From positions 31,051-95,050 of the forward strand of contig CAZGFX010000003.1 of NCBI GenBank assembly GCA_964524845.1: DNA of 64,000 nt, in the 5' to 3' direction. A program made the position numbers and the translations under genes. Source of the DNA: an uncultured Gammaproteobacteria bacterium (lineage in GTDB: Bacteria > Patescibacteriota > Patescibacteriia > CAZGFX01). Shown here piece by piece: positions 4,612-64,000 of the stretch (the stretch's first letter is position 1; every line of letters begins with the position of its first letter). Under the pieces are notes generated by a model. The model did no database searches and was not told where the DNA came from. It saw nothing but the letters and a program-made list of their open reading frames with translations.

Positions 4612-5793
4612 ATGACAAAGATTTTTATAAGTATTGGTATTACACTTTTTCTAACAGGATGTTTTGGAGCTGACTTTTCTCTTTTTTCTTCAATTGAAAA
4701 AGAAACACTTGCTTCTGATGTTACTAAACAGTTGGAAAACAAAACACTTACCACCACCCAAAAAACAGAAATACCAGTTGTAATAAAACGAGTTCCACTT
4801 CCGGAAGAAGTTCGCGGTATGTATTGGACAGTAACTACAGCCGGATCAACAAAACGAGCTGATCAGCTTATTTCATATATGGAAAAATACGGTTTAAATA
4901 CCGTCGTCATAGATCTAAAAGCAGATGATGGATCTCTTGGTTTTGTGCCAAACACAGACTCAATAAAAAAATATAAAGCAAAAAATACTATAATAAAAGA
5001 TCTTGATGGTTTACTATCCAAGCTTGCCGACAAAAATATTTATCGTATAGCTCGCATCGCTATCATGCGCGACAACATGTTCGCTACCAAAAATCCCGCG
5101 GTCTCGCTTCATACAAAAAACGGAAAGATTTGGTATGACAAAATAGGATCTCTCTGGCTCGATCCGGCCGCACCTGAGGTTATAGAATACGCCCGCCTCC
5201 TAGCAGAAGAAGCGTATGCTCGTGGATTTGATGAAATACAGTTTGATTATGTCAGATTCCCTTCTGACGGAAGTATTTCATCTATCGTATATCCTGTATA
5301 TAACTCCGCGACACAAACAAAAATAGGTGTGATGCAGAATTTTTTTAAAACACTCGGGGGAGGTTTGCAAGCCAAAAAAATACCCGTTTCATTCGATGTG
5401 TTTGGTATGACATTCTGGTCAACAAATGATTACGGCATCGGCCAACGCCTGATTGATGTATATCCATACACTGACTTTGTATCTCCGATGCCATACCCTT
5501 CTCACTATCCAAATGGCTTCGAAGGATACAAAAACCCAGCTCTTTATCCTTATGAAATTATAAAAAAGACTCTTGATAAAGGAGTTGAAATGATCCAAAA
5601 AGAAATTGGCGCACCTCCTGAGGAGATAAAGAAAAAAATACGACCGTGGCTTCAAGACTTTGATCTTGGCGCAGTATACACAGCGGAACGAATCGAGGCC
5701 GAAATAAAAGCATCGCGTGATGCAGGCTCGTCCGGTTGGATACTCTGGAACGCCCGTAACGTCTACGAACCCGCGAATTACACAAAAAAGTAA
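4612..5793 (+). CDS. Lipoprotein with a putative glycoside-hydrolase-like TIM-barrel domain (DUF4015-like)
   Basis: Lipobox LFLTGC. The domain assignment rests on overall similarity to GH-like family proteins and is tentative. Confidence 0.5.
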   Translation: MTKIFISIGITLFLTGCFGADFSLFSSIEKETLASDVTKQLENKTLTTTQKTEIPVVIKRVPLPEEVRGMYWTVTTAGSTKRADQLISYMEKYGLNTVVIDLKADDGSLGFVPNTDSIKKYKAKNTIIKDLDGLLSKLADKNIYRIARIAIMRDNMFATKNPAVSLHTKNGKIWYDKIGSLWLDPAAPEVIEYARLLAEEAYARGFDEIQFDYVRFPSDGSISSIVYPVYNSATQTKIGVMQNFFKTLGGGLQAKKIPVSFDVFGMTFWSTNDYGIGQRLIDVYPYTDFVSPMPYPSHYPNGFEGYKNPALYPYEIIKKTLDKGVEMIQKEIGAPPEEIKKKIRPWLQDFDLGAVYTAERIEAEIKASRDAGSSGWILWNARNVYEPANYTKK

Positions 5794-5967
5794 CAGAAAA
5801 ACACCATGTGTTTTTGATAATGTTTTTACATTATTTGGCTAATAATAGTCACGACTTTAATATTGACAAAAAGGCATAATTTGTATTATCATTACACGAT
5901 TGCTCATTGAAAGAAAATAAATAAACAAAAATTAAATTGTCTTTATAGACAAGAAAGCGAGGCTATT

Positions 5968-7371
5968 ATGTCACTGTGTCCGGATAATATCGGTGGTTCG
6001 TCTCATGAAGAAAAACTAGAAACAACCACACAGCAAGAATCATTTAATTATGAACGCGGTGTGTCACTGACAATCAATGGCGGAAAGAACGAACTTGATT
6101 CCGCGACCATCCCTATACAGTGGTGGTTTGATAAAAAGACAATAAAAAAGAAGCCGAAATACGTTCTGATTATAGAACAAAACGAAAAAGAATCTCGTTC
6201 TTCTGCCAACTGTAAAAACGGAAGAAGATATTTATGCGAAGTAACAGAAGGAGTAAAATATTTACAAATATTCTCTTCCGGATATCACAGATTAATGGTA
6301 ATTGTGTTTGATTCTTCTGTAAAACTATCAGAAATTCAACGCTTAATAGCAAAAGAAAAAAACATATATACTGATCTTTTTTATGAATATCACTTATATT
6401 TCAGAGCCGAAAACGACCATGAAGAAATAACCGGTTTAAGTTTAACTGATAACAAATACATTTCATGGGCGGTAACAGAATTTACAGTTCCAGAAGAATT
6501 GTTTGCCAAAAGACCAAGTACAAAAACGGGTGGATGGATATGGAACTGGGCAAATGAGTGGTACAAAAAGGATCCAATTGATGAATGCGCTTACAGAAAA
6601 AGGAAAATATTCGCATTCACATTAAAACCACTTTTGGTCCTCTTTTTTTCTGTGCTTAAGCTTACATGGTTCTTAATAAAAAACAGTATGTTTTGGTCGA
6701 TATACGGATTGATGTGGCTCTTGTATTTCTTCTTTGGATGCAGAATGGTTGGGCCGCAAGATTTTAAAGAATGTTTTGATGGAGGAATTCCCGGATTAAA
6801 AGAACTTCTTTATATCCAGCAGAAATATTTAGAAAAATCTGATGGTAACACTGACTGGACAAAACCCGTTAAAAAATACAAAAGCTGGAGTATTGTAAAA
6901 GACAAAAATGGAAATGAAAGAATTAGAAAAATGCCATTTTCTCCATTTGAGTTATCTGTCTTCACCGGGGTATTAATGTTCTTTATCTTTGTTCTTCCAA
7001 AAATTGATATTTCGATATCGGTAGCTGATGAGACGCTTTTGATGGCTTTGTTAATCATTATTGGAATCTCTGTCTTATTTTTTATCATTACTATGTATGT
7101 GAAAAATCTTTTCAATTTCAAAATAAACATCAAAGAATATAAGAAGGACAGGAGACTCAAAAAGGAACAAGAAAAAGAAAAAAGAATTGTTTTAGCGGTA
7201 AGTGCATATGAGAATTGGCTTGAAAAATATATGAATCGGGTACAAAAAACGGAAATCGTCGACATAAGACATCTTCCTCCTCCGCCACAAAAAACAGAAA
7301 GGATCATCCGAGCTTTTAGGGTTGCTTTTTGGGCAACTAAGGCAAAAGTATGTAAACCATACGCCAAATAA
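5968..7371 (+). CDS. Hypothetical membrane protein (about 210-aa soluble N-terminal region, then several TM helices)
   Basis: 467-aa ORF. A TTGACA-18-TATCAT promoter-like sequence and a TTGTCTttatAGACAA palindrome lie upstream. Confidence 0.55.
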   Translation: MSLCPDNIGGSSHEEKLETTTQQESFNYERGVSLTINGGKNELDSATIPIQWWFDKKTIKKKPKYVLIIEQNEKESRSSANCKNGRRYLCEVTEGVKYLQIFSSGYHRLMVIVFDSSVKLSEIQRLIAKEKNIYTDLFYEYHLYFRAENDHEEITGLSLTDNKYISWAVTEFTVPEELFAKRPSTKTGGWIWNWANEWYKKDPIDECAYRKRKIFAFTLKPLLVLFFSVLKLTWFLIKNSMFWSIYGLMWLLYFFFGCRMVGPQDFKECFDGGIPGLKELLYIQQKYLEKSDGNTDWTKPVKKYKSWSIVKDKNGNERIRKMPFSPFELSVFTGVLMFFIFVLPKIDISISVADETLLMALLIIIGISVLFFIITMYVKNLFNFKINIKEYKKDRRLKKEQEKEKRIVLAVSAYENWLEKYMNRVQKTEIVDIRHLPPPPQKTERIIRAFRVAFWATKAKVCKPYAK

Positions 7372-8254: not shown

Positions 8255-9325
8255 TTACGCTACGACAGGAGGAACTTCAGGCTCTTCTATGGATTTCTCC
8301 GTCTTAACATTTGGTTTGAATCCTTCTGTTTTTACAACTTGAGCAACGTCTTTCATAATGCGTTCAAATGCCTTCTTGTCCTCTTTCAAGAAGATTCGCA
8401 CCGCCTCTCTGCCAACACCAAGCTTCTCTTCTTTATATGTGTAACTGTTTCCTGATTTCTTGATCGTCCCATACTTCACTCCGAGATCTAAAAGATCACC
8501 TGACAATGAAATGCCTTCGTCAAACATAATATCAAACTCTGTTGTACGGAACGGTGGCGCGACTTTATTTTTAACCACTTTTACCTTCACCCTGCTTCCA
8601 ACAATGTCATCTCCTCTTTTTATCTGCGCGGCCTTTCTGATCTCTAGACGTACAGTCGCATAAAACTTGAGAGCATTTCCACCTGTGGTCGTCTCAGGAT
8701 TTCCGAAAAACACTCCTATCTTCATGCGTGTCTGATTGATAAACACTACGATCGTCTTCGTCTTATTAACTATACCGGCCAACTTACGAAGTGCTTGTGA
8801 CATAAGACGAGCCTGAAGTCCCATGTGCTGATCTCCCATCTCACCTTCGATTTCCGCCTTCGGCACAAGTGCCGCTACAGAATCAACAACGATCACATCA
8901 ACGCTATTTGAACGAACAAGCGTCTCAACGATTTCGAGAGCCTGCTCACCATTATCAGGTTGTGAGATATATAAATTATTTATATTGACTCCGATCTTCT
9001 TCGCATAATCAGGGTCAAGTGAGTTCTCCGCGTCAACATACGCCGCGAGTCCTCCTTGTCTCTGTACTTCAGAAACGATATGGAGCGCGAGTGTCGTCTT
9101 ACCGGAACTCTCCGGACCATATACCTCAATTATACGACCTCTCGGAACTCCCATAACTCCGAGCGCGAGATCAAGTGACAGACAGCCTGTCGATACAGCA
9201 TCAACACTCATCGCTTTTGCATCGCCAAGCTTCATGATCGCTCCATCACCAAAACGTTGTTTGATTTGATCCATCGCCTGCTCAGCAACGGATAATTTAG
9301 TTGAAACTTCTTCTTTTTTTACCAT
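8255..9325 (-). CDS. recA: Recombinase RecA
   Basis: [13 protein letters not shown] Walker A, and RecA signature regions throughout the 356 aa. Confidence 0.95.
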
Positions 9326-13235: not shown

Positions 13236-13314
13236 ATGGTGGGCGATTAGGGATTCGAACCCCAGACCCTCTCGGTGTAAACGAGATGCTCTAACCAGAC
13301 TGAGCTAATCGCCC
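13236..13314 (-). tRNA. tRNA-Val (TAC)
   Basis: GGGCGAT acceptor, TTTACAC anticodon loop, GGTTCGAATCC, CCA encoded. Confidence 0.9.
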
Positions 13315-13315
13315 A

Positions 13316-13392
13316 TGGTGGAGAATAAGGGAGTCGAACCCTTGACCTCCTCGGTGCAAACGAGGCGCTCTAGCCAACTGAGCTAATTCCCC
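13316..13392 (-). tRNA. tRNA-Ala (TGC)
   Basis: GGGGAAT acceptor, TTTGCAC anticodon loop. Only a 1-nt spacer separates it from tRNA-Val. Confidence 0.9.
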
Positions 13393-15143: not shown

Positions 15144-15194
15144 AAACACAAAACAACCCCGCCATCGCTAACGCTCGGCGGGGTTGTTTTTTTA

Positions 15195-15319
15195 TGTCAT
15201 GCTGAACCTTTAGTCCTGAGTTCGTCTCAAGATCTGAACTCGTTTCAGCATCTGCCGTGTAACTTTTAACTACATTGTCATGCTGAACTCGTTTCAGCAT
15301 CTGCCGTGTAACTTTTAAT
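15195..15319. repeat. Family-A palindromic element: one full copy plus one internally deleted copy
   Basis: TGTCATGCTGAACCTTTAGTCCTGAGTTCGTCTCAAGATCTG...TTTCAGCATCTGCCGTGTAACTTTTAACTACAT at 15195-15275. A 44-nt deleted version lies at 15276-15319. Confidence 0.85.
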
Positions 15320-15360
15320 AATATGGGTTATAAGTTTTCCTAGAAAACATTGTATCAAGG

Positions 15361-15440
15361 TAGATCCTGAAGGGAATATACAGATCCTGAAACAAGTTCA
15401 GGATGACATTGTTCAGGATAAAATTGTTCAGCATGACAAC
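15361..15440. repeat. 20-bp tandem YAGATCCTGAAR units with hairpin partners (ATCCTGAA...TTCAGGAT)
   Basis: Direct reading. The same arrangement recurs at 41575-41645 and 41741-41812. Confidence 0.8.
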
Positions 15441-15545
15441 ATTAATATTCCGCTCTCGTTCCGCTCAGCCGAACTTGTCACATCGAGCGACTATTGTAAT
15501 CTCAAACCAACATTGTCATCTCGAACGAAGTGAGAGATCCACAAA
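15441..15545. repeat. Family-B element (iterated TTGTCACMTCGA motifs ending ...CTCGAACGAAGTGAGAG)
   Basis: Matches copies at 38385, 55118 (reverse orientation) and 59925. Confidence 0.75.
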
Positions 15546-15580: not shown

Positions 15581-15716
15581 GAAGACAAGGTATTGGCGAT
15601 TACCTACTCTCCCAGGTCATAAGACCTAGTACCATCGGCCCGCAAGGACTTAACTGCCGGGTTCGGAATGTGACCGGGTGTACCCCCTCTGGAAGTATCA
15701 CCAATACTCTGTCTTC
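15581..15716 (-). rRNA. rrf: 5S rRNA
   Basis: Helix I pairing gaagacagagtattggtga / tcgccaataccttgtcttc, and an internal CCGAACCCGGCAGTTAAG loop-B/C region. Ends are approximate. Confidence 0.8.
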
Positions 15717-15819
15717 TATAATTTTTGTGATGAATAAAAATGAAATATCACAAACGCATTTTTCGCACGCATACTGAAAAAGAAAGAATGAATCGTATTA
15801 TATACTCATATATATGTGC

Positions 15820-18905
<3,086 letters not shown>

Positions 18906-19071
18906 ACATATACGAGTAGATACTTACTCACTTCTTTACTTTTACTAATTTGTATGCGCGCGAAAATTACGTTTGTAATTTTCGCACGTTTATTCAACTG
19001 TCAACGAACCCTTATGTTGAATGACAATCAACTTTTATATATTATTCAAAAAATTCAACAAAAGCTCTCAT

Positions 19072-23916: not shown

Positions 23917-23993
23917 TGGTGGGCGTACCAAGAATCGAACTTGGGACCTCAACATTATCAGTGTTGCGCTCTAACCAGCTGAGCTATACGCCC
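23917..23993 (-). tRNA. tRNA-Ile (GAT)
   Basis: GGGCGTATAGCTCAGCTGGTTAGAGC...CTGATAA anticodon loop...GGTTCGATTC...CCA. Confidence 0.9.
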
Positions 23994-24624: not shown

Positions 24625-26122
<1,498 letters not shown>

Positions 26123-26275
26123 CAAAACATCTGCCGCGAAAAAAATCGCGAAAGATATCAAATTTTGGTTTATAAAGGAATTGGGACCGTAATATCTCAA
26201 ACCAAGATATTGACGGTCTGGTTATTATATTCTGCTGTCAACGTACCAAATTGACCTCTTACGAAGTCGTGTGTG

Positions 26276-38384: not shown

Positions 38385-38530
38385 ACACTCGCTTCGCTCA
38401 ACCCCCGCAAAGCGGGATCCCGTCTTGCGGGAATTGTCACCTCGAACAAAGTAGCCTGTCCCGACGAATGTCGGGAAGAAGTCTTCTTGCTCCATGACTT
38501 TTGACTTTTGACACATTCGCTTCGCTCAGT
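38385..38530. repeat. Family-B element bounded by CGCTTCGCTCA direct repeats
   Basis: cactcgcttcgctcaacccccgcaaagcgggatcccgtcttgcgggaattgtcacctcgaac...cattcgcttcgctcag. It shares about 40 nt almost exactly with 59990-60040. Confidence 0.8.
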
Positions 38531-40491: not shown

Positions 40492-40845
40492 ATACTAAGA
40501 TCATTACTGATTAATCTGATGCTATGTGTATATTTTTATATAAAAACACACATCTGCACCGCAACTATATACGTTATTTCGGTCTTTGTAAAGCCTAAAA
40601 AACGCCAAAGTGTTTGAAAAAATATGTTTTTTTATAAAATCATATTAAAAGTGCATAAACTATGGACAAAGTGTGGATAATATGTGATTATAATTAAATT
40701 AAAATAAACAGTTATTTGGCTAAGGTAAGACGATAAATCGTATTTTTCTTATTTTTAACATCTTCTTTGAAATTGACATTTTCTTTTTATGATGCTAACA
40801 TAAACATGCTCGTTAAAAAGGAATTCTGATACGTGCTTTTATATG

Positions 40846-41057
40846 TGTGTTGACGACAAGCATGGAAGTTTTTCTCTAAGTACATCCGGCTCAGGCTTGA
40901 TGTCGCTAGAGAAAAGTTTTCTTCAACACACATATGAGTGCGTGTTTCATAAGTAAAGCAGCTTAGGAAGTGTGTTGACGACAAGCATGGAAGTTTTTCT
41001 CTAAGTACATCCGGCTCAGGCTTGATGTCGCTAGAGAAAAGTTTTCTTCAACACACC
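40846..41057. repeat. Two 86-bp palindromic MITE-like copies (TIR GTGTGTTGA...TCAACACAC) separated by 38 bp
   Basis: 40846-40931 and 40970-41055 are near-identical. Each is a long imperfect hairpin with 9-bp terminal inverted repeats. Confidence 0.85.
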
Positions 41058-41085
41058 TCCCAGGCTGTTTTTTTGTTTTACAATA

Positions 41086-41402
41086 AATTGAAGCGAGCCG
41101 AAGTGCTCGCATCAAATTGGATGAGACATCTTCCTGACATCCGTCAGGACAGGCGCTTTCGTGCTCGATGTGACAAGCTCCATAAAGCGATAGCGTGCGG
41201 GGTATGTAGAGATATTTTTGGATGAAAAGGATAAGCGACTTGTTCGAGAGAACATAAAAATATAAATCATGAAGCGAGCCGAAGTGCTCGCATCAAATTG
41301 GATGAGACATTTTCCTGACATCCGTCAGGACAGGCGCTTTCGTGCTCGATGCGACAATGTTGGTCGAGGTGACAAGTTCCGCAAAGCGATAGCGTGCGGG
41401 GT
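41086..41402. repeat. Two roughly 120-bp direct repeats (gaagcgagccgaagtgctcgcatcaaattggatgagaca...gcgatagcgtgcgggg)
   Basis: Copies at 41086-41205 and 41270-41402. The second carries a 21-nt insertion resembling family B (gtcgaggtgacaag). Confidence 0.85.
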
Positions 41403-41410
41403 GTTAATAT

Positions 41411-41575
41411 TGTCATGCTGAACCTTTAGTCCTGAGTTCATCTCAGGATCTGCGCCCTTTCAGCATCTACCGTGTAATTTTTAACTACATTGTCATGCTG
41501 AACCTTTAGTCCTGAGTTCATCTCAGGATCTGCGCCCTTTCAGCATCTGCTGTGTGACTTTTGATAATATGAGTA
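41411..41575. repeat. Two tandem family-A palindromic elements
   Basis: Copies at 41411-41490 and 41491-41575. They match 15195-15275 at about 90% identity. Confidence 0.85.
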
Positions 41576-41812
41576 GATCCTGAAACAGGTACATAGATCC
41601 TGAAAGGAATACATAGATCCTGAAATAAATTCAGGATGACAAGGTCAGTTCAGAATGACACAGGCACATTGTATCAAGGAAGATTCTGAAACGAGTTCAG
41701 AATGACACAGGCACATTGTATCAAGGAAGATTCTGAAACAGATATATAGATCCTGAAAGGAATACACAGATCCTGAAATAAATTCAGGATGACATTGTTC
41801 AGGATGGTGGTG
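41575..41812. repeat. GATCCTGAAA 20-mer arrays flanking two 45-bp tandem copies (gttcagaatgacacaggcacattgtatcaaggaagattctgaaac)
   Basis: 20-mers at 41581-41640 and 41746-41800. 45-mers at 41648-41692 and 41695-41739. Confidence 0.85.
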
Positions 41813-55117: not shown

Positions 55118-55262
55118 ACACTGAACGAAGCGAACGCAGTAAGGATGAGACCTCTTCCTTCGGTCGAGGTGACAGTGTTGAGCGAAGCGAACGTAGTAAG
55201 GATGAGACCTCTCCCTTTGGTCGAGGTGACAATGTTGAGCGTAGCGAATGTGCCAAAAAAAA
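55118..55262. repeat. Family-B element: about 2.3 tandem 57-60-bp units
   Basis: AGCGAAGCGAACGYAGTAAGGATGAGACCTCTYCCTTYGGTCGAGGTGACARTGTTG repeated. It is the reverse complement of the 60070-60130 region. Confidence 0.85.
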
Positions 55263-59841: not shown

Positions 59842-59924
59842 GCCGCGGTGGTGAAATTGGTATACACGCATGCCTTAGGAGCATGTGCGAAAGCATGAGA
59901 GTTCGAGTCTCTCCCGCGGCACCA
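59842..59924 (+). tRNA. tRNA-Leu (TAG), class II with long variable arm
   Basis: GCCGCGG acceptor, CTTAGGA anticodon loop, variable arm TGCGAAAGCATG, GGTTCGAGTC T-loop, CCGCGGC-A-CCA. Confidence 0.85.
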
Positions 59925-60170
59925 TTCGATCGTCGCTCCGTTCCTCACTCATGGCAGAGCCACCAGAATTCATCGCTTTGCTCAACTCCCGCGAAGTGGG
60001 ATCCTACCTTGCGGGAATTGTCACCTCAGCCAACTTTGTCACATCGACCCACTTTGTCACCTCGACCAACATTGTCACCTCGAACGAATGTGAGAGGTCT
60101 CCCCCTCCGTATCACCTTGCCACATCTCGCTCGCACGAAAAAACTAAATTTTTCGTTCGAACGAGACGTT
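59925..60170. repeat. Family-B element immediately downstream of tRNA-Leu
   Basis: cgcgaagtgggatcctaccttgcgggaattgtcacctc, then iterated ttgtcacMtcgaNc motifs, then gtgagaggtctcc. The ORFs 59793..60208 and 59885..60208 inside it are spurious. Confidence 0.85.
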
Positions 60171-60218
60171 GCATAAACGGCGCACATTATCTGAAATTTT
60201 ATTTTTAATTTTAATAAC

Positions 60219-60617
60219 ATGGAAACAAACAAATTGCCACGCAACATAATTTTGGCTAGTATTTTATTAATAGCACTATCAATCAGCTATTATTATTTGA
60301 TTTTTCTGCCTCAAAAAGAAAATACTAGAATTAAAACCAACTGTATTGATAAGGTGCTTAAAGAAATGAAAGACGCTCATCCCAAAATGCAAACCGATGA
60401 GATTACTAATTTTAGAATTGCTAACGATAGAGGTTGCTTTATAGAGGCAGGTTGTATGCAAGGAGTACAAGATGCTAATTTCAAACCTAAATTTAGTGAA
60501 TGCAATAATGATTATTATAATTCTTGTTTATCTAATATAAAAAACCAGGCAGAAGAAATGATTCAGGCAGAAAAATCAAAAAGGATTAATGAATGCATTG
60601 ATCTTTATTCAAATTAA
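60219..60617 (+). CDS. Small secreted or anchored Cys-containing protein (AT-rich islet)
   Basis: N-terminal hydrophobic anchor and several Cys residues. The sequence is noticeably AT-richer than backbone genes. Confidence 0.5.
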   Translation: METNKLPRNIILASILLIALSISYYYLIFLPQKENTRIKTNCIDKVLKEMKDAHPKMQTDEITNFRIANDRGCFIEAGCMQGVQDANFKPKFSECNNDYYNSCLSNIKNQAEEMIQAEKSKRINECIDLYSN

Positions 60618-60806
60618 AATTAAAAGTAAAACATCATATAACACCAAATATACGACTATTCTTTTAAAAATATCTTAAATTTATTTTTCATTAATTATAG
60701 AGGGGTATAAGGTGTTTTCTCCGCGGAGTTTACCCCGCAACCAATGCGGGGCTACGAAAACGATTTATTTATAAGGGGAAAACAATTATAATAATTATAA
60801 CCAACC

Positions 60807-61925
60807 ATGAAAATTGCTATGAATAAAAAGAGTAAAAAGACAAAAAAATTAAACGTCGCTACGGTTTTTAGTGGTATCGGTGCTTTTGAACATGCGCTAG
60901 AAAGAATGAAAATTGAACATGAAATAATATTTGCTTGTGATAATGATGAACAATGTAAAAAAACATATTTTGCAAATTATAAGATACTGGAAGACAATTG
61001 GTATAATGATATTTTTTCTTTAAATGGTAAGAAATATAAAAATTGCGTAGACATTTTAATAGGAGGAAGTCCATGCCAATCATTTTCTATGGTTGGCAAA
61101 AGAAAAGGGCTAAAAGATGACAGGGGTAATTTAATATTTGAATATATTAAATTAATCAAAGACGTTGAACCAAATGTTTTTATTTTTGAAAATGTAAAAG
61201 GTTTATTAAATCATGAGCAAGGGAAAACATGGACATTTATTGAAAAATCATTTAAAAAGTTGGGGTATGTTGTTAAACATCAAGTTCTAAATGCAAAAAA
61301 TTATGGCATACCGCAAAACAGAGAAAGAGTATTTCTAGTTGGATTTAAAAACAAAAAAGTAAATTTTGAATTTCCAAATCCAGTTAAACTTGAAATTACA
61401 ATGCAGGATTTATTAGAAGATAATCTAGATTCTAAATATTATTTAGGGAATAAGGGCATAAGTTTTGTCACGAAACAAAAAAACCTAGATAAAAGATATA
61501 CACAAATTAATGGCAATATTGCGCTTTGCCAAAAAGCTAATCAACAATTTAATTGGCATGGGGATTTTATTCTAGAAAAAGCAAAAAAGGACGTTGAAAA
61601 TAAATACTATTTATCGGAGAAAGTTAAAGATTATGTTTTAAAAACCGGTACAAAAAATTTTTATTCAAAACCAAAAACAGATTTACCAGTAGCAAGACCA
61701 TTGTTACAAAGTATGCATAAGATGCATAGAGCTGGAGTTGACAATTACATAACCAAGGGTGAAAAAATAAGAAAGCTTACACCAAGAGAGTGTCACAGAT
61801 TAATGGGTTTTTCAGATAATTTTAAAATAGTTGTTAGCGACACGCAGGCTTATAGACAGGCTGGCAATAGTATCGTTGTCCCAGTTATTATTGAGGTATT
61901 AAAAAAAATATTATTACATTTATAA
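60807..61925 (+). CDS. DNA (cytosine-5)-methyltransferase
   Basis: Motif I FSGIGAF, motif IV GGSPCQSFS, motif VI ENVKGL, motif VIII QVLNAKNYGIPQNRERVF, motif X QAGNSIVVPV. Confidence 0.9.
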   Translation: MKIAMNKKSKKTKKLNVATVFSGIGAFEHALERMKIEHEIIFACDNDEQCKKTYFANYKILEDNWYNDIFSLNGKKYKNCVDILIGGSPCQSFSMVGKRKGLKDDRGNLIFEYIKLIKDVEPNVFIFENVKGLLNHEQGKTWTFIEKSFKKLGYVVKHQVLNAKNYGIPQNRERVFLVGFKNKKVNFEFPNPVKLEITMQDLLEDNLDSKYYLGNKGISFVTKQKNLDKRYTQINGNIALCQKANQQFNWHGDFILEKAKKDVENKYYLSEKVKDYVLKTGTKNFYSKPKTDLPVARPLLQSMHKMHRAGVDNYITKGEKIRKLTPRECHRLMGFSDNFKIVVSDTQAYRQAGNSIVVPVIIEVLKKILLHL

Positions 61926-61931
61926 TAATTT

Positions 61932-62903
61932 ATGAAATTACAAATACTAGGTAAAAATTACAAAGTACTTGATGCAAAAGAAAAAATAACAATAGCAGAT
62001 TCTTTTGTTGTAAGACAAAATAAAATAGGAACAGGAAACGGTGAAGCTAAGCTTTATGTTGGCAACGACAATGAAGAAGTGCGAAATTTTTTTGGCAGTA
62101 GCGGTTTTGCAGTCGACTGTTTCTTGTTAAAAAAAGACCTAATAAAATATTTAGAAGAAACTAAAGTTGAATATTTAAATCCAGAGCAACCCTATATCAA
62201 TAAAAGCAGTCTCCCTGAGTTATGGAAAACAAGAAAAGACAAAGTAAATTCATTGCCTGAAATTATAGAATTTACTGTTATAGAGCAAACTCAAATTGCG
62301 GGACCAAGGATATATATAAATTCTTCAGATGAAGCATATTCCTTGATAAGAGAATTATCTTTACCTAATGTAACATATATTTCAGTGATCAAACTTACAA
62401 ATGAAGACAATAAACTGTTTTATTATTTCCGTTTATTCGCAGACTATTTTGGTGAGGTAGAACATCCATTTTTAATTAAAAAAGAAAGTGATGAAATAAA
62501 AGATGCACAACTAGACATTGTTGAAAAAACACAATTATACAAGGCGAGGGTAGGGCAAGGAGAATATCGAAAAAAATTATTAGAACTTTGCCCATTTTGT
62601 CCAATTACTTTGGTTTCTGATGATAGGCTACTTATTGCAAGCCACATTAAACCATGGGCTTCTTCAAATAATTTTGAAAAAACAGATCCAATGAATGGTT
62701 TTATGCTTACTCCAACTTTTGATTTTCTTTTTGATAGAGGTTTTCTTTCTTTCACTGATGATAAAAAAACAATTTTATCGCCATTTCTTTCTAATATGAC
62801 ATATTCAAAAATTGGAATTTCTAATAATAAGTTAATACTTCATCTGAAAACAGAAGGACGTGAGAAGTACCTAGAATATCATAGAAAAAACATTTTTAAA
62901 TAA
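61932..62903 (+). CDS. HNH (His-Me finger) nuclease-domain protein; candidate Type II restriction endonuclease partner
   Basis: RVGQGEYRKKLLELCPFCPIT...LLIASHIKPWASS...NGFMLTPTFDFLFDRG is an HNH core with a CxxC zinc ligand pair. The start lies 7 nt after the MTase stop. Confidence 0.65.
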   Translation: MKLQILGKNYKVLDAKEKITIADSFVVRQNKIGTGNGEAKLYVGNDNEEVRNFFGSSGFAVDCFLLKKDLIKYLEETKVEYLNPEQPYINKSSLPELWKTRKDKVNSLPEIIEFTVIEQTQIAGPRIYINSSDEAYSLIRELSLPNVTYISVIKLTNEDNKLFYYFRLFADYFGEVEHPFLIKKESDEIKDAQLDIVEKTQLYKARVGQGEYRKKLLELCPFCPITLVSDDRLLIASHIKPWASSNNFEKTDPMNGFMLTPTFDFLFDRGFLSFTDDKKTILSPFLSNMTYSKIGISNNKLILHLKTEGREKYLEYHRKNIFK

Positions 62904-62905
62904 GG

Positions 62906-62975
62906 AGTTTTGGGCTTCGGGCATTCACCCCTTTAATTCCCCTCTGTCCTTCGCCCAAAACGAAAAAAGAAATTT
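62906..62975 (+). terminator. Long stem-loop (gttttgggc...gcccaaaac) after the nuclease gene
   Basis: Directly read inverted repeat followed by an A/T-rich stretch. Whether it terminates transcription is uncertain. Confidence 0.35.
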
Positions 62976-63083
62976 TAAAATTTTTAAAACAATTCCGACT
63001 GCTGTCGGAAAAAAGAAAAGGAATACATCAGCTAACACGGCATATCTAGTTACTGCTTTTATACAAAAGCCTCCGCCCATATT

Positions 63084-63725
63084 TTGTTCCGCTACGCTCC
63101 ACAAAACATCAGATATGCCAAAACGTTAGATGAAATTTTATTTTTTATGGATTATAATGATGTCCAAGCACGTCTAAAAAATATTTACTCGTCCATAGAC
63201 GAGCAATATTCTTATGGTCATGAGGCTCTTGGTATGGCTCATTGGGAACAAACTGACAATCAAATTAGCTTTTCCTTTCTTAATCCAAACAATAAACCAA
63301 GGGTTATAAATCAAATAAACAATGTCATTTCAAACCTTGCCAACATAAAAGATTGCCTAAAGAAAAAACTTCAAGACAGAGGCGACGATCCTCAAGCTAT
63401 TGAGTACGAAATTAACGACTCATTGTACTTGCAGTTGGTTCTCGATTTATCTAACCAAGAAAAGCACGGCTACCCGCTTACAAAAACTAGTCGATCTCAA
63501 AAAAACCCACTCATTAAAAACGTTAACCGAGGACTTTCACGCTCGAACAGACTAGACAATATTAGATATGAACAAAGCGACGGTTCTGTAATAGTTAATA
63601 TGATGATCATTATAACCGCAGACGTAACAGACTCTCAGGACAATCTTTTGTGTCGGCTTGATGAATTAGTAGAAAACGCTCTTAAGTTTTGGGAGAATAC
63701 TATAAAAAAATATAACATCGACTAA
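63084..63725 (+). CDS. Hypothetical protein (AT-rich islet)
   Basis: 213-aa ORF. A start at the internal Met MDYND is also possible. Confidence 0.45.
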   Translation: MFRYAPQNIRYAKTLDEILFFMDYNDVQARLKNIYSSIDEQYSYGHEALGMAHWEQTDNQISFSFLNPNNKPRVINQINNVISNLANIKDCLKKKLQDRGDDPQAIEYEINDSLYLQLVLDLSNQEKHGYPLTKTSRSQKNPLIKNVNRGLSRSNRLDNIRYEQSDGSVIVNMMIIITADVTDSQDNLLCRLDELVENALKFWENTIKKYNID

Positions 63726-63773
63726 CAAGGAATATCCGATTCGCGACCTAAATTAAATTATTTAAAATATTCT

Positions 63774-63989
63774 ATGAAAAAAACATTTATTACAATAGTA
63801 ATTATACTGATATTAATTATAATTTATCAATCACTACAAATTATTCGTTTAGAAAACTATCATTATGCTGTTCAAGTTGGTTTGTGTTCAGACATGGACG
63901 ATTTCATTAAAAAGGATGATTGTTTAAATAATACAAAAACCAGAACAAACCCTATCTATAATTTGCTGTATGGGCTTAAGATATTTTAA
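63774..63989 (+). CDS. Small hypothetical membrane protein
   Basis: 71 aa with one N-terminal TM helix. It lies at the window edge. Confidence 0.4.
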   Translation: MKKTFITIVIILILIIIYQSLQIIRLENYHYAVQVGLCSDMDDFIKKDDCLNNTKTRTNPIYNLLYGLKIF

Positions 63990-64000
63990 AAATAATTCAA

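Follow-up and report, generated by a model that had tools for sequence, protein, structure and literature searches.

What kind of system is encoded where a cytosine methyltransferase gene is followed, within a few nucleotides, by the gene of an HNH nuclease? The question is raised by the right-hand end of a 64,000-nucleotide (nt) stretch of contig CAZGFX010000003.1 (assembly GCA_964524845.1), deposited under an uncultured gammaproteobacterium and placed by GTDB in the Patescibacteriota; this whole stretch is referred to as the window. An initial annotation, made without database searches, described a run of AT-rich open reading frames (ORFs) downstream of a tRNA-Leu gene, comprising a small Cys-containing protein, a C5-cytosine DNA methyltransferase (MTase), an HNH nuclease and two unknown proteins, and read the whole as a tRNA-adjacent restriction-modification (R-M) or defence islet. 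All five ORFs are present where that annotation placed them. We find that the acquired unit consists of the MTase and nuclease genes with short flanks, and we consider it likely that this unit (60666-63127) is a compact cassette, mobile by horizontal transfer, that encodes a classical Type II R-M system blocked by methylation, in which the nuclease joins a B3-like DNA-reading domain to an HNH cleavage domain (B3-HNH).

A two-gene cassette transferred between lineages

The MTase (372 amino acids, aa) is a complete C5-cytosine enzyme. It matches PF00145 at E=8e-84 with 282 bits (cut-off 22), TIGR00675 at E=3e-86 with 290 bits (cut-off 100.65) and the PADLOC model MTase_II at E=7e-94. Catalytic motifs I, IV (GSPCQSFS), VI (ENVKGL), VIII (QNRER) and X (GNSIVVPV) align with those of M.HhaI and are all intact, and the reading frame carries neither a frameshift nor an inactivating change, in agreement with its original description as complete. 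Its target recognition domain (TRD) could be aligned neither with M.HhaI or M.HaeIII nor with the other solved MTases. The 323-aa nuclease starts, as first described, with an ATG at the seventh base after the MTase stop codon.

This pair has moved recently between lineages. Using blastn, 60666-63127 aligns to three contigs from elsewhere (L026, L028 and L029) in one alignment of 2472 columns with 86.3% DNA identity, whereas the 23S rRNA of the window is just 69-77% identical to that of the L026-type host. Because the DNA homology is confined to this interval, what was transferred is a cassette of two genes and 2.46 kb, and not the five-gene stretch that had been proposed as a single islet. Between the window and L026, the MTase has a ratio of nonsynonymous to synonymous substitution rates (dN/dS) of 0.054 and the nuclease one of 0.049, its N-terminal domain taken alone giving 0.058, with dS between 0.62 and 0.69; both genes have thus been kept by strong purifying selection since the copies diverged, and the 7-nt spacing between them is the same in both. 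The nearest relative of the nuclease (93% aa identity) stands in a differing context, in which ParAB...RadC, 23S-5S rRNA genes, a divergent tyrosine recombinase, the MTase and the nuclease follow one another. In L026 (4400-8612; also L028 1-1224) the cassette lies directly downstream of the 23S-5S block and adjoins a divergent 277-aa tyrosine recombinase (Phage_integrase). This recombinase, absent from the window, is a possible mobilising enzyme.

Base composition also sets the pair apart. GC content is 0.374 in the backbone, 0.302 over 60219-64000 and 0.288 over the MTase and nuclease, the last being lower than in every backbone window of equal size. GC and GC at third codon positions (GC3) are 0.284 and 0.202 for the MTase gene and 0.296 and 0.186 for the nuclease gene, about 2-3 standard deviations (sd) under the 31 backbone ORFs (2.1-2.4 sd for GC3 of the pair). 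In L026 the GC of the pair is 0.289, and in both places it lies under that of the backbone. The region is therefore not uniform in composition, and the AT-rich run described at first holds for the MTase and nuclease; it does not hold as a uniform run, the deviation being patchy and orf192 (GC 0.361, GC3 0.354) resembling the backbone. A public contig (L001, 8.1 kb), identical to the window over a 4,803-bp overlap, adds 3.3 kb up to window-equivalent position 67316. Since low GC returns in this extension, for example in a VanW gene (0.273), no sharp distal compositional boundary is seen in the available 3.3 kb.

The linkage of the two genes is obligatory across a large family. The nuclease has at least 3,500 database matches, which fall into over 120 clusters when grouped at 72-80% identity and come from at least six phyla. 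Among 20 genome loci with a related nuclease, 17 include upstream DNA, and in all 17, as well as in L026-L029, the gene immediately upstream encodes an orthologous C5-MTase with 60-68% identity. This linkage extends over Bacteroidota, Acidobacteriota, Gammaproteobacteria, Campylobacterota, Ignavibacteriota-like lineages and the candidate phyla radiation (CPR). The earlier suggestion that the MTase and HNH genes form an acquired R-M module is borne out both by this constant adjacency and by the 86% identical copy in a distant host.

The nuclease and its predicted B3-like reader

The C-terminal domain of the nuclease is of the restriction-type HNH_2 kind and matches no housekeeping family. PF13391 (HNH_2) covers aa 223-274 with 35.2 bits (cut-off 21), the PADLOC HNH model matches at E=1e-21, and REase_II/HNH profiles match at E=2e-14 and 4e-13. 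The last 134 aa match VcaM4I (PDB 6YEX) at E=6e-25 with the single sequence and 4.7e-43 with the family profile, and H238, N255, D264 and D268 align with the validated catalytic residues H224, N241, D250 and D254 of VcaM4I. VcaM4I is an EVE-HNH endonuclease dependent on 5-methylcytosine (5mC) or 5-hydroxymethylcytosine (5hmC), whose isolated HNH dimer is non-specific, toxic and held back by a linker helix (PMC7897488). The interdomain linker of the window nuclease occupies the position of this auto-inhibitory helix (PMC7897488). It is the least conserved part of the nuclease across loci (mean 54%) and has a predicted local distance difference test score (pLDDT) of 52-61, with helices predicted at aa 179-191 and 196-219.

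The N-terminal domain (about 175 aa) was described at first as lacking any recognisable motif, and indeed it has no match in Pfam, NCBIfam, PADLOC, PHROGs or a PDB profile search. An exhaustive search with this domain alone returned 352 cluster representatives. AlphaFold, given 101 sequences, modelled it with a pLDDT of 95.6 and a predicted template modelling score of 0.89; the full-length nuclease reached a pLDDT of 90.5, with low confidence in the linker at about aa 171-210. The model is an open pseudobarrel of seven to eight strands and can be superposed on known B3 domains, with scores of 8.5 for FUS3, 8.4 for RAV1, 6.7 for both UbaLAI-N and LlaJI.R1-N, 6.5 for VRN1, 6.4 for both BfiI-C and NgoAVII, and 5.9 and 5.4 for EcoRII; no PUA, EVE or SRA structure was retrieved. 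The best Foldseek hit in the PDB is not significant (E=0.17), with LEC2, ARF2 and UbaLAI B3 domains as just weak matches, so the B3 assignment is good but single-method. Neither a Pfam B3/EcoRII-N match nor a profile match to solved B3 chains was found. The domain had also been put forward as a possible novel DNA-recognition module; the model supports DNA recognition by a B3-type domain, and it speaks against novelty, the predicted fold being a known one.

KpnI, Hpy99I, PacI, MnlI, Eco31I and HphI are Type II restriction enzymes of the HNH type. The window nuclease resembles them in having a beta-beta-alpha-Me site within a Type II R-M system, but its recognition module differs in kind. Among enzymes with B3 domains, EcoRII and UbaLAI (both Type IIE) carry catalytic modules of the PD-(D/E)XK type and BfiI (Type IIS) and NgoAVII of the phospholipase-D type, whereas the window enzyme carries HNH. 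The predicted reader shares 6-14% pairwise identity with the B3 domains of Type II enzymes, a comparison group that also included CglI (NgoAVII/CglI), and has an extra helical insert at about aa 67-106. The VcaM4I/TspA15I group is alike in layout (sensor, helical linker, C-terminal HNH_2), with a homologous HNH domain and identical catalytic residues. Its sensor, however, has the base-flipping pocket of PUA/EVE domains and its members are rarely MTase-linked, while the window nuclease has a B3-like sensor and is always accompanied by a C5-MTase.

No similarity over the full length of the nuclease was found to any solved or named enzyme in PDB, plasmid and phage searches; a search of plasmids and phages for a characterised or named homolog gave matches to the C-terminal HNH domain only. 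Public annotations of the family read just 'HNH endonuclease' or 'putative restriction endonuclease', and no description of a B3-HNH fusion was found in the full text of 8 million papers. A reader of the LlaJI/EcoRII type joined to a cutter of the VcaM4I type is apparently an undescribed architecture of a known Type II R-M kind.

Methylation-blocked or modification-dependent cleavage

We hypothesize that the two proteins act as follows. The MTase would methylate a cytosine within a short target sequence conserved across the family, and the B3-like pseudobarrel of the nuclease would read the same target in its unmethylated state only. The helical linker would couple this reader to a probably dimeric, intrinsically non-specific HNH module; reader binding would position the module and probably de-repress it via the linker, leading to cleavage at or near the bound site. 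Methylation of the target cytosine would block reader binding, leaving host DNA safe and incoming unmethylated DNA open to cleavage. Such a logic would resemble that of Type IIS and Type IIE enzymes, and because the reader is fused directly to HNH without an AAA+ motor, cleavage should be independent of nucleoside triphosphates (NTPs).

The methylation-blocked polarity is suggested by the universal MTase linkage, by the joint conservation of reader and TRD, and by precedent. Across all loci, mean conservation is 67% for the TRD, 64% for the reader and 57% for the N-terminal catalytic lobe of the MTase. A TRD that is more conserved than the catalytic lobe points to one specificity common to the family and matched by the conserved reader; judged from these sequence comparisons, the two appear to behave as a matched specificity pair. 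As for precedent, the B3 domains of restriction enzymes read unmodified sites (PMC12065111; PMC3973309), and in LlaJI, which is documented as a classical R-M system, m5C MTases are paired with a nuclease of the B3-McrB/McrC kind (PMC7680126; PMC1459862). The B3-like sensor and the constant MTase linkage together predict a polarity opposite to that of the VcaM4I group.

Plasmid systems lend direct support to this precedent, the likeness to LlaJI extending there to sequence. In Vitreoscilla and Acinetobacter, plasmids encode an MTase whose TRD shows 67% identity, next to an AAA ATPase and an annotated 'LlaJI family restriction endonuclease'. The N-termini of these ATPases, which correspond to R1 of LlaJI, are homologous to the window reader (31-32% identity over 153 aa; E=5e-12 and 2e-10); the LlaJI-family neighbours of matching TRDs come without a stated specificity. 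The systems also differ. In LlaJI, R1 joins a B3 domain to a McrB-like AAA+ GTPase and R2 is McrC-like, whereas the window nuclease lacks an AAA domain and has no McrC gene nearby; LlaJI has two MTases and the window system one; and no sequence similarity is detectable between the window reader and the solved N-domain of Helicobacter pylori LlaJI.R1. On one such plasmid (Acinetobacter schindleri pSGAir0122; L031 2745-7365), a gene for a very-short-patch repair endonuclease (Vsr) precedes the operon of MTase, AAA ATPase and LlaJI-family nuclease, which is consistent with such an MTase being accompanied by repair of m5C-induced T:G mismatches.

The reader also occurs without HNH. Elsewhere it is fused to GmrSD_N, to a McrB-type AAA_5 domain or to an AAA_21 ATPase (L022, L024/L025, L023 and the P0220 contig): GmrSD_N comes with an AAA_15/21 + DUF3696 partner and a 269-306-aa protein, McrB AAA_5 with McrC, a DUF6166 domain together with GmrSD_N, and the AAA_21 ATPase with DUF3226. 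The corresponding operons run from an MTase with a helix-turn-helix (HTH) domain to reader-GmrSD and AAA_15/21; from an MTase to reader-McrB and McrC; from an MTase fragment to reader-AAA_21; and from reader-DUF6166-GmrSD to AAA_15/21 and a 269-aa ORF, with a convergent MTase. The MTases of these architectures are 58-63% identical to that of the window, and 62-67% within the TRD. From gene context, we see an even chance that one targeting pair, a B3-like reader and a C5-MTase with a conserved TRD, has been recombined with at least four effector modules, namely the VcaM4I-type HNH of the window, GmrSD_N/DUF262 with an AAA_15/21 partner, McrB with McrC (LlaJI-like), and an AAA_21 ATPase.

A three-gene form is found at some loci, where an HTH-MTase is followed by a second HNH protein of 362-367 aa and then by B3-HNH (L002 4885-5988; L013 2977-4065). 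This second protein has a different N-domain of about 230 aa and an HNH domain of the same type as in B3-HNH; related segments occur at L009 6001-6258 and L012 2147-2569. It is possibly a second reader or a heterodimer partner. In a further locus (L015), a partial extra B3 copy (1715-2215) lies about 3 kb from the full gene (5421-6362).

Several observations weigh against a methylation-blocked R-M cassette, and two of them concern polarity: the solved structure nearest to the HNH domain is that of a modification-dependent enzyme, and GmrSD and McrBC, found in several sister architectures, are known above all from Type IV systems. Both would fit a modification-dependent nuclease of Type IV or Type IIM, with the MTase modifying a non-overlapping context or with the pair acting as an addiction or suicide module, as would a weak match of the nuclease to the NCBIfam phosphorothioate-dependent restriction endonuclease family (E=2e-4, far under the cut-off). 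We rejected this reading, prompted by the VcaM4I match, on the predicted fold, the MTase linkage and the co-conservation of the TRD. As modelled, the nuclease has no PUA-superfamily (EVE/SRA/YTH) or other modified-base sensor such as characterises the TspA15I/VcaM4I, TagI and ScoMcrA groups. Nor does it stand alone as modification-dependent PUA-HNH enzymes do: these have a DNA MTase neighbour in less than 6% of cases (PMC6765204), whereas an MTase always adjoins the nuclease here. A modification-dependent enzyme is therefore highly unlikely.

The remaining contrary observations concern expression and activity in the present host. The window MTase lacks the N-terminal HTH extension found in several orthologs (496-497 aa; L022, L002 and L013), which leaves the timing of expression upon entry into a new host unexplained. 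Upstream of the MTase, a 23-nt insertion relative to L026 (about 8800-8830) creates the palindrome CTCCGCGGAG and a hairpin, and regulation in the window may thus differ from that of the orthologs. Promoter and terminator scans of the region gave results at chance level. No candidate target site is depleted in the host window, as would fit a recent arrival of the cassette. In a pooled Markov analysis of 274 kb of host loci, GATC (observed/expected 0.62; more than 2-fold in 12 of 19 loci) and GGCC (0.53) are the most depleted, as a hint only to the target, both sites being generically avoided in bacteria and the analysis having no control set.

A pair that is decaying or silent here, or an inactive nuclease beside an effectively orphan MTase, would account for the scans at chance level, the missing HTH regulator and the absence of site avoidance. 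We nevertheless consider it highly unlikely: neither ORF is truncated or lacks a catalytic residue, dN/dS against L026 is about 0.05 and the intergenic spacing has been preserved. The classical methylation-blocked cassette thus remains the preferred explanation.

Surroundings of the cassette and implications for the family

Table 1. Positions of the cassette, its parts and neighbouring features in the window.
Feature	Position	Strand	Basis
Mobile R-M cassette of two genes (MTase and nuclease), with flanks of 141 nt upstream and 224 nt downstream	60666-63127	+	blastn
Structured element upstream of MTase: palindrome CTCCGCGGAG and perfect 7-bp hairpin CCCCGCA-n5-TGCGGGG (60733-60751)	60719-60765	+	sequence
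C5-cytosine DNA MTase, complete; TRD at about aa 196-315	60807-61925	+	profiles, motifs
HNH nuclease	61932-62903	+	
Nuclease aa 1-170: B3-like DNA-binding pseudobarrel, presumed target-site reader	61932-62441	+	predicted structure
Nuclease aa 171-210: flexible helical interdomain linker	62442-62561	+	structure prediction
Nuclease aa 211-323: VcaM4I-type HNH (beta-beta-alpha-Me) cleavage domain	62562-62903	+	profile, PDB match
Conserved core of about 45 nt at right end of cassette, TCCGCTACGCT...AACATCAGATATGCCAAAACGTT	63086-63130	+	alignment
orf132, 132 aa, hydrophobic N-terminal segment, 6 Cys, outside cassette	60219-60617	+	ORF list
orf192, CPR-lineage hypothetical protein, outside cassette	63147-63725 (213 aa from TTG at 63084)	+	ORF list, homologs
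orf71, small hydrophobic protein	63774-63989	+	ORF list
tRNA-Leu(tag), left neighbour of region, not demonstrably integration site	59842-59924	+	ARAGORN; Rfam RF00005, 58.3 bits
Dispersed intergenic backbone repeat ('family B' copy) with 18-nt tandem array	59973-60091		repeat searches

Could the cassette be part of something larger? The initial annotation saw the classic signature of a tRNA-associated island, and one defence islet spanning 59.9 to beyond 64 kb, integrated at tRNA-Leu with orf132, orf192 and orf71 as functional accessories, would agree with the adjacent tRNA gene and with the AT-richness of orf132, orf71 and the MTase-nuclease pair (Table 1). One homolog of orf192 (L034 4830-5800) moreover stands beside HEPN_AbiU2, DUF5677 and an N6/N4 MTase. 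However, the 20 genome loci with a related nuclease all lack orf132, orf192/213 and orf71, and DNA homology to L026 ends at 60666 and 63127. The backbone-like composition of orf192 and its CPR-restricted distribution point the same way. A search of the 7.4 kb downstream for stretches of 14-30 nt from the 3' end of the tRNA-Leu gene, at 1-6 mismatches, gave no direct repeat, and no integrase is present among the genes as far as 67316, where the extension ends, a more distant boundary being possible. Taken together, these results leave the tRNA-island signature unsupported, and we regard a single islet as very improbable. A selfish endonuclease of the homing type, or some other unrelated HNH gene that lies beside the MTase by coincidence, would suit the frequency of HNH domains in homing endonucleases and the mobility of the cassette, but it is the most improbable reading of all, given an MTase linkage kept across at least six phyla, a restriction-type HNH_2/VcaM4I subtype and a fused reader common to LlaJI-family restriction subunits.

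The homologs of the flanking ORFs have a narrow distribution. orf132 has no family match in Pfam, NCBIfam, PADLOC or PHROGs and 11 homologs, all in metagenome-assembled genomes; it lies outside the segment common to the window and L026. orf192 has 81 homologs, in varying contexts; the few with organism names are nearly all from Patescibacteria, Parcubacteria, Magasanikbacteria or Brennerbacteria, with one from Pedobacter. From this distribution and their absence from the 20 R-M loci, orf132 and orf192 are best seen as lineage-restricted host genes. The organism names among the orf192 homologs further suggest a CPR bacterium as host. For orf71, no significant match was found in the same four collections.

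Immediately downstream of the nuclease, the cassette ends in a conserved core of about 45 nt. A start of orf192 at TTG (63084) would overlap this core, so that the start chosen in the public annotation, ATG at 63147, is the likelier one. A second copy of the core (TCCGCTACGCT...AACATCAGATATGCCRAAACGTT) lies 1,027 bp further on (L001 4916-4963, window-equivalent 64113-64160); the two copies bracket orf192 and orf71, and both ORFs are missing from the L026 copy. A 23-nt core matches once in the window (0 expected); among the loci it is confined to L001, with two copies, and to L026, L027 and L029, with one apiece. Just upstream, we also observed an inverted repeat (63040-63052 versus 63105-63119) and a nested hairpin GGCTTTT-ATAC-AAAAGCC. 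The core may be a recombination site (integron- or Xer-like) or, equally plausibly, a repeated leader element, since a promoter-like direct repeat of another kind flanks the L034 homolog of orf192. That repeat is about 50 nt long (...GATATAATAAAAA...). There are hints that orf192 is a small gene, independently mobile or independently promoted, that sometimes lies in defence neighbourhoods.

On the left side, tRNA-Leu(TAG) is directly followed by a repeat, as described at first, and this repeat belongs to a real dispersed family. Its first part (59973-60027) is 87% identical to 38389-38443 (families D13 and D19), and an 18-nt unit, TTGTCACCTCGACCAACT, is repeated 3.7 times at 60018-60083 (TRF), with akin units at 15506-15529, 41353-41375 and 55217-55237. 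Local GC is 0.45-0.50, backbone-like or above. Other structured intergenic repeat families, with 74-88-nt units at 94-100% identity, are found in tandem or dispersed at 15193-15408, 40845-41794, 55122-55235 and 38389-38471, with a dense cluster at 40.8-41.8 kb; some of these families have the GGTCGAGGTGACA / TGTCACCTCGACC motif in common with the post-tRNA repeat.

The rRNA genes of the window are unlinked. The 16S gene (24625-26123, minus strand), with tRNA-Ile (23917-23993), is separated by about 5.7 kb from the 23S gene (15810-18909, minus strand), which is 3,100 nt long against a 2,925-nt model and may hold an insertion. The 5S gene lies at 15591-15705, and tRNA-Ala and tRNA-Val further on at 13237-13392. 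Past the end of the window, L001 5208-7956 (window-equivalent 64405-67153) encodes a Fic/Fic_N protein of 383 aa, a Bact_hydrolase-family protein of 156 aa and the VanW protein of 302 aa.

For the organism, the cassette appears to be a recent arrival in the reduced genome of a probable member of the CPR/Patescibacteria, drawn from a pool common to Bacteroidota and others. Biologically it is an ordinary R-M system, and it opens no long-standing question. What it offers to R-M enzymology is an abundant, uncharacterised architecture. With its separable reader and cutter, this architecture could be a source of a Type IIS-like enzyme of new specificity.

Across the wider family, a reader and MTase pair is found with effectors of the HNH, GmrSD, McrBC or ABC-type ATPase kind, which makes Type II and Type IV systems harder to tell apart by annotation. 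An HNH_2 or GmrSD domain alone is therefore insufficient to call a gene modification-dependent. If all versions are blocked by methylation, the hallmark effectors of Type IV systems, GmrSD especially, would also work in classical R-M mode, and B3-HNH would be the minimal, NTP-independent form and a candidate new Type IIS-like enzyme.

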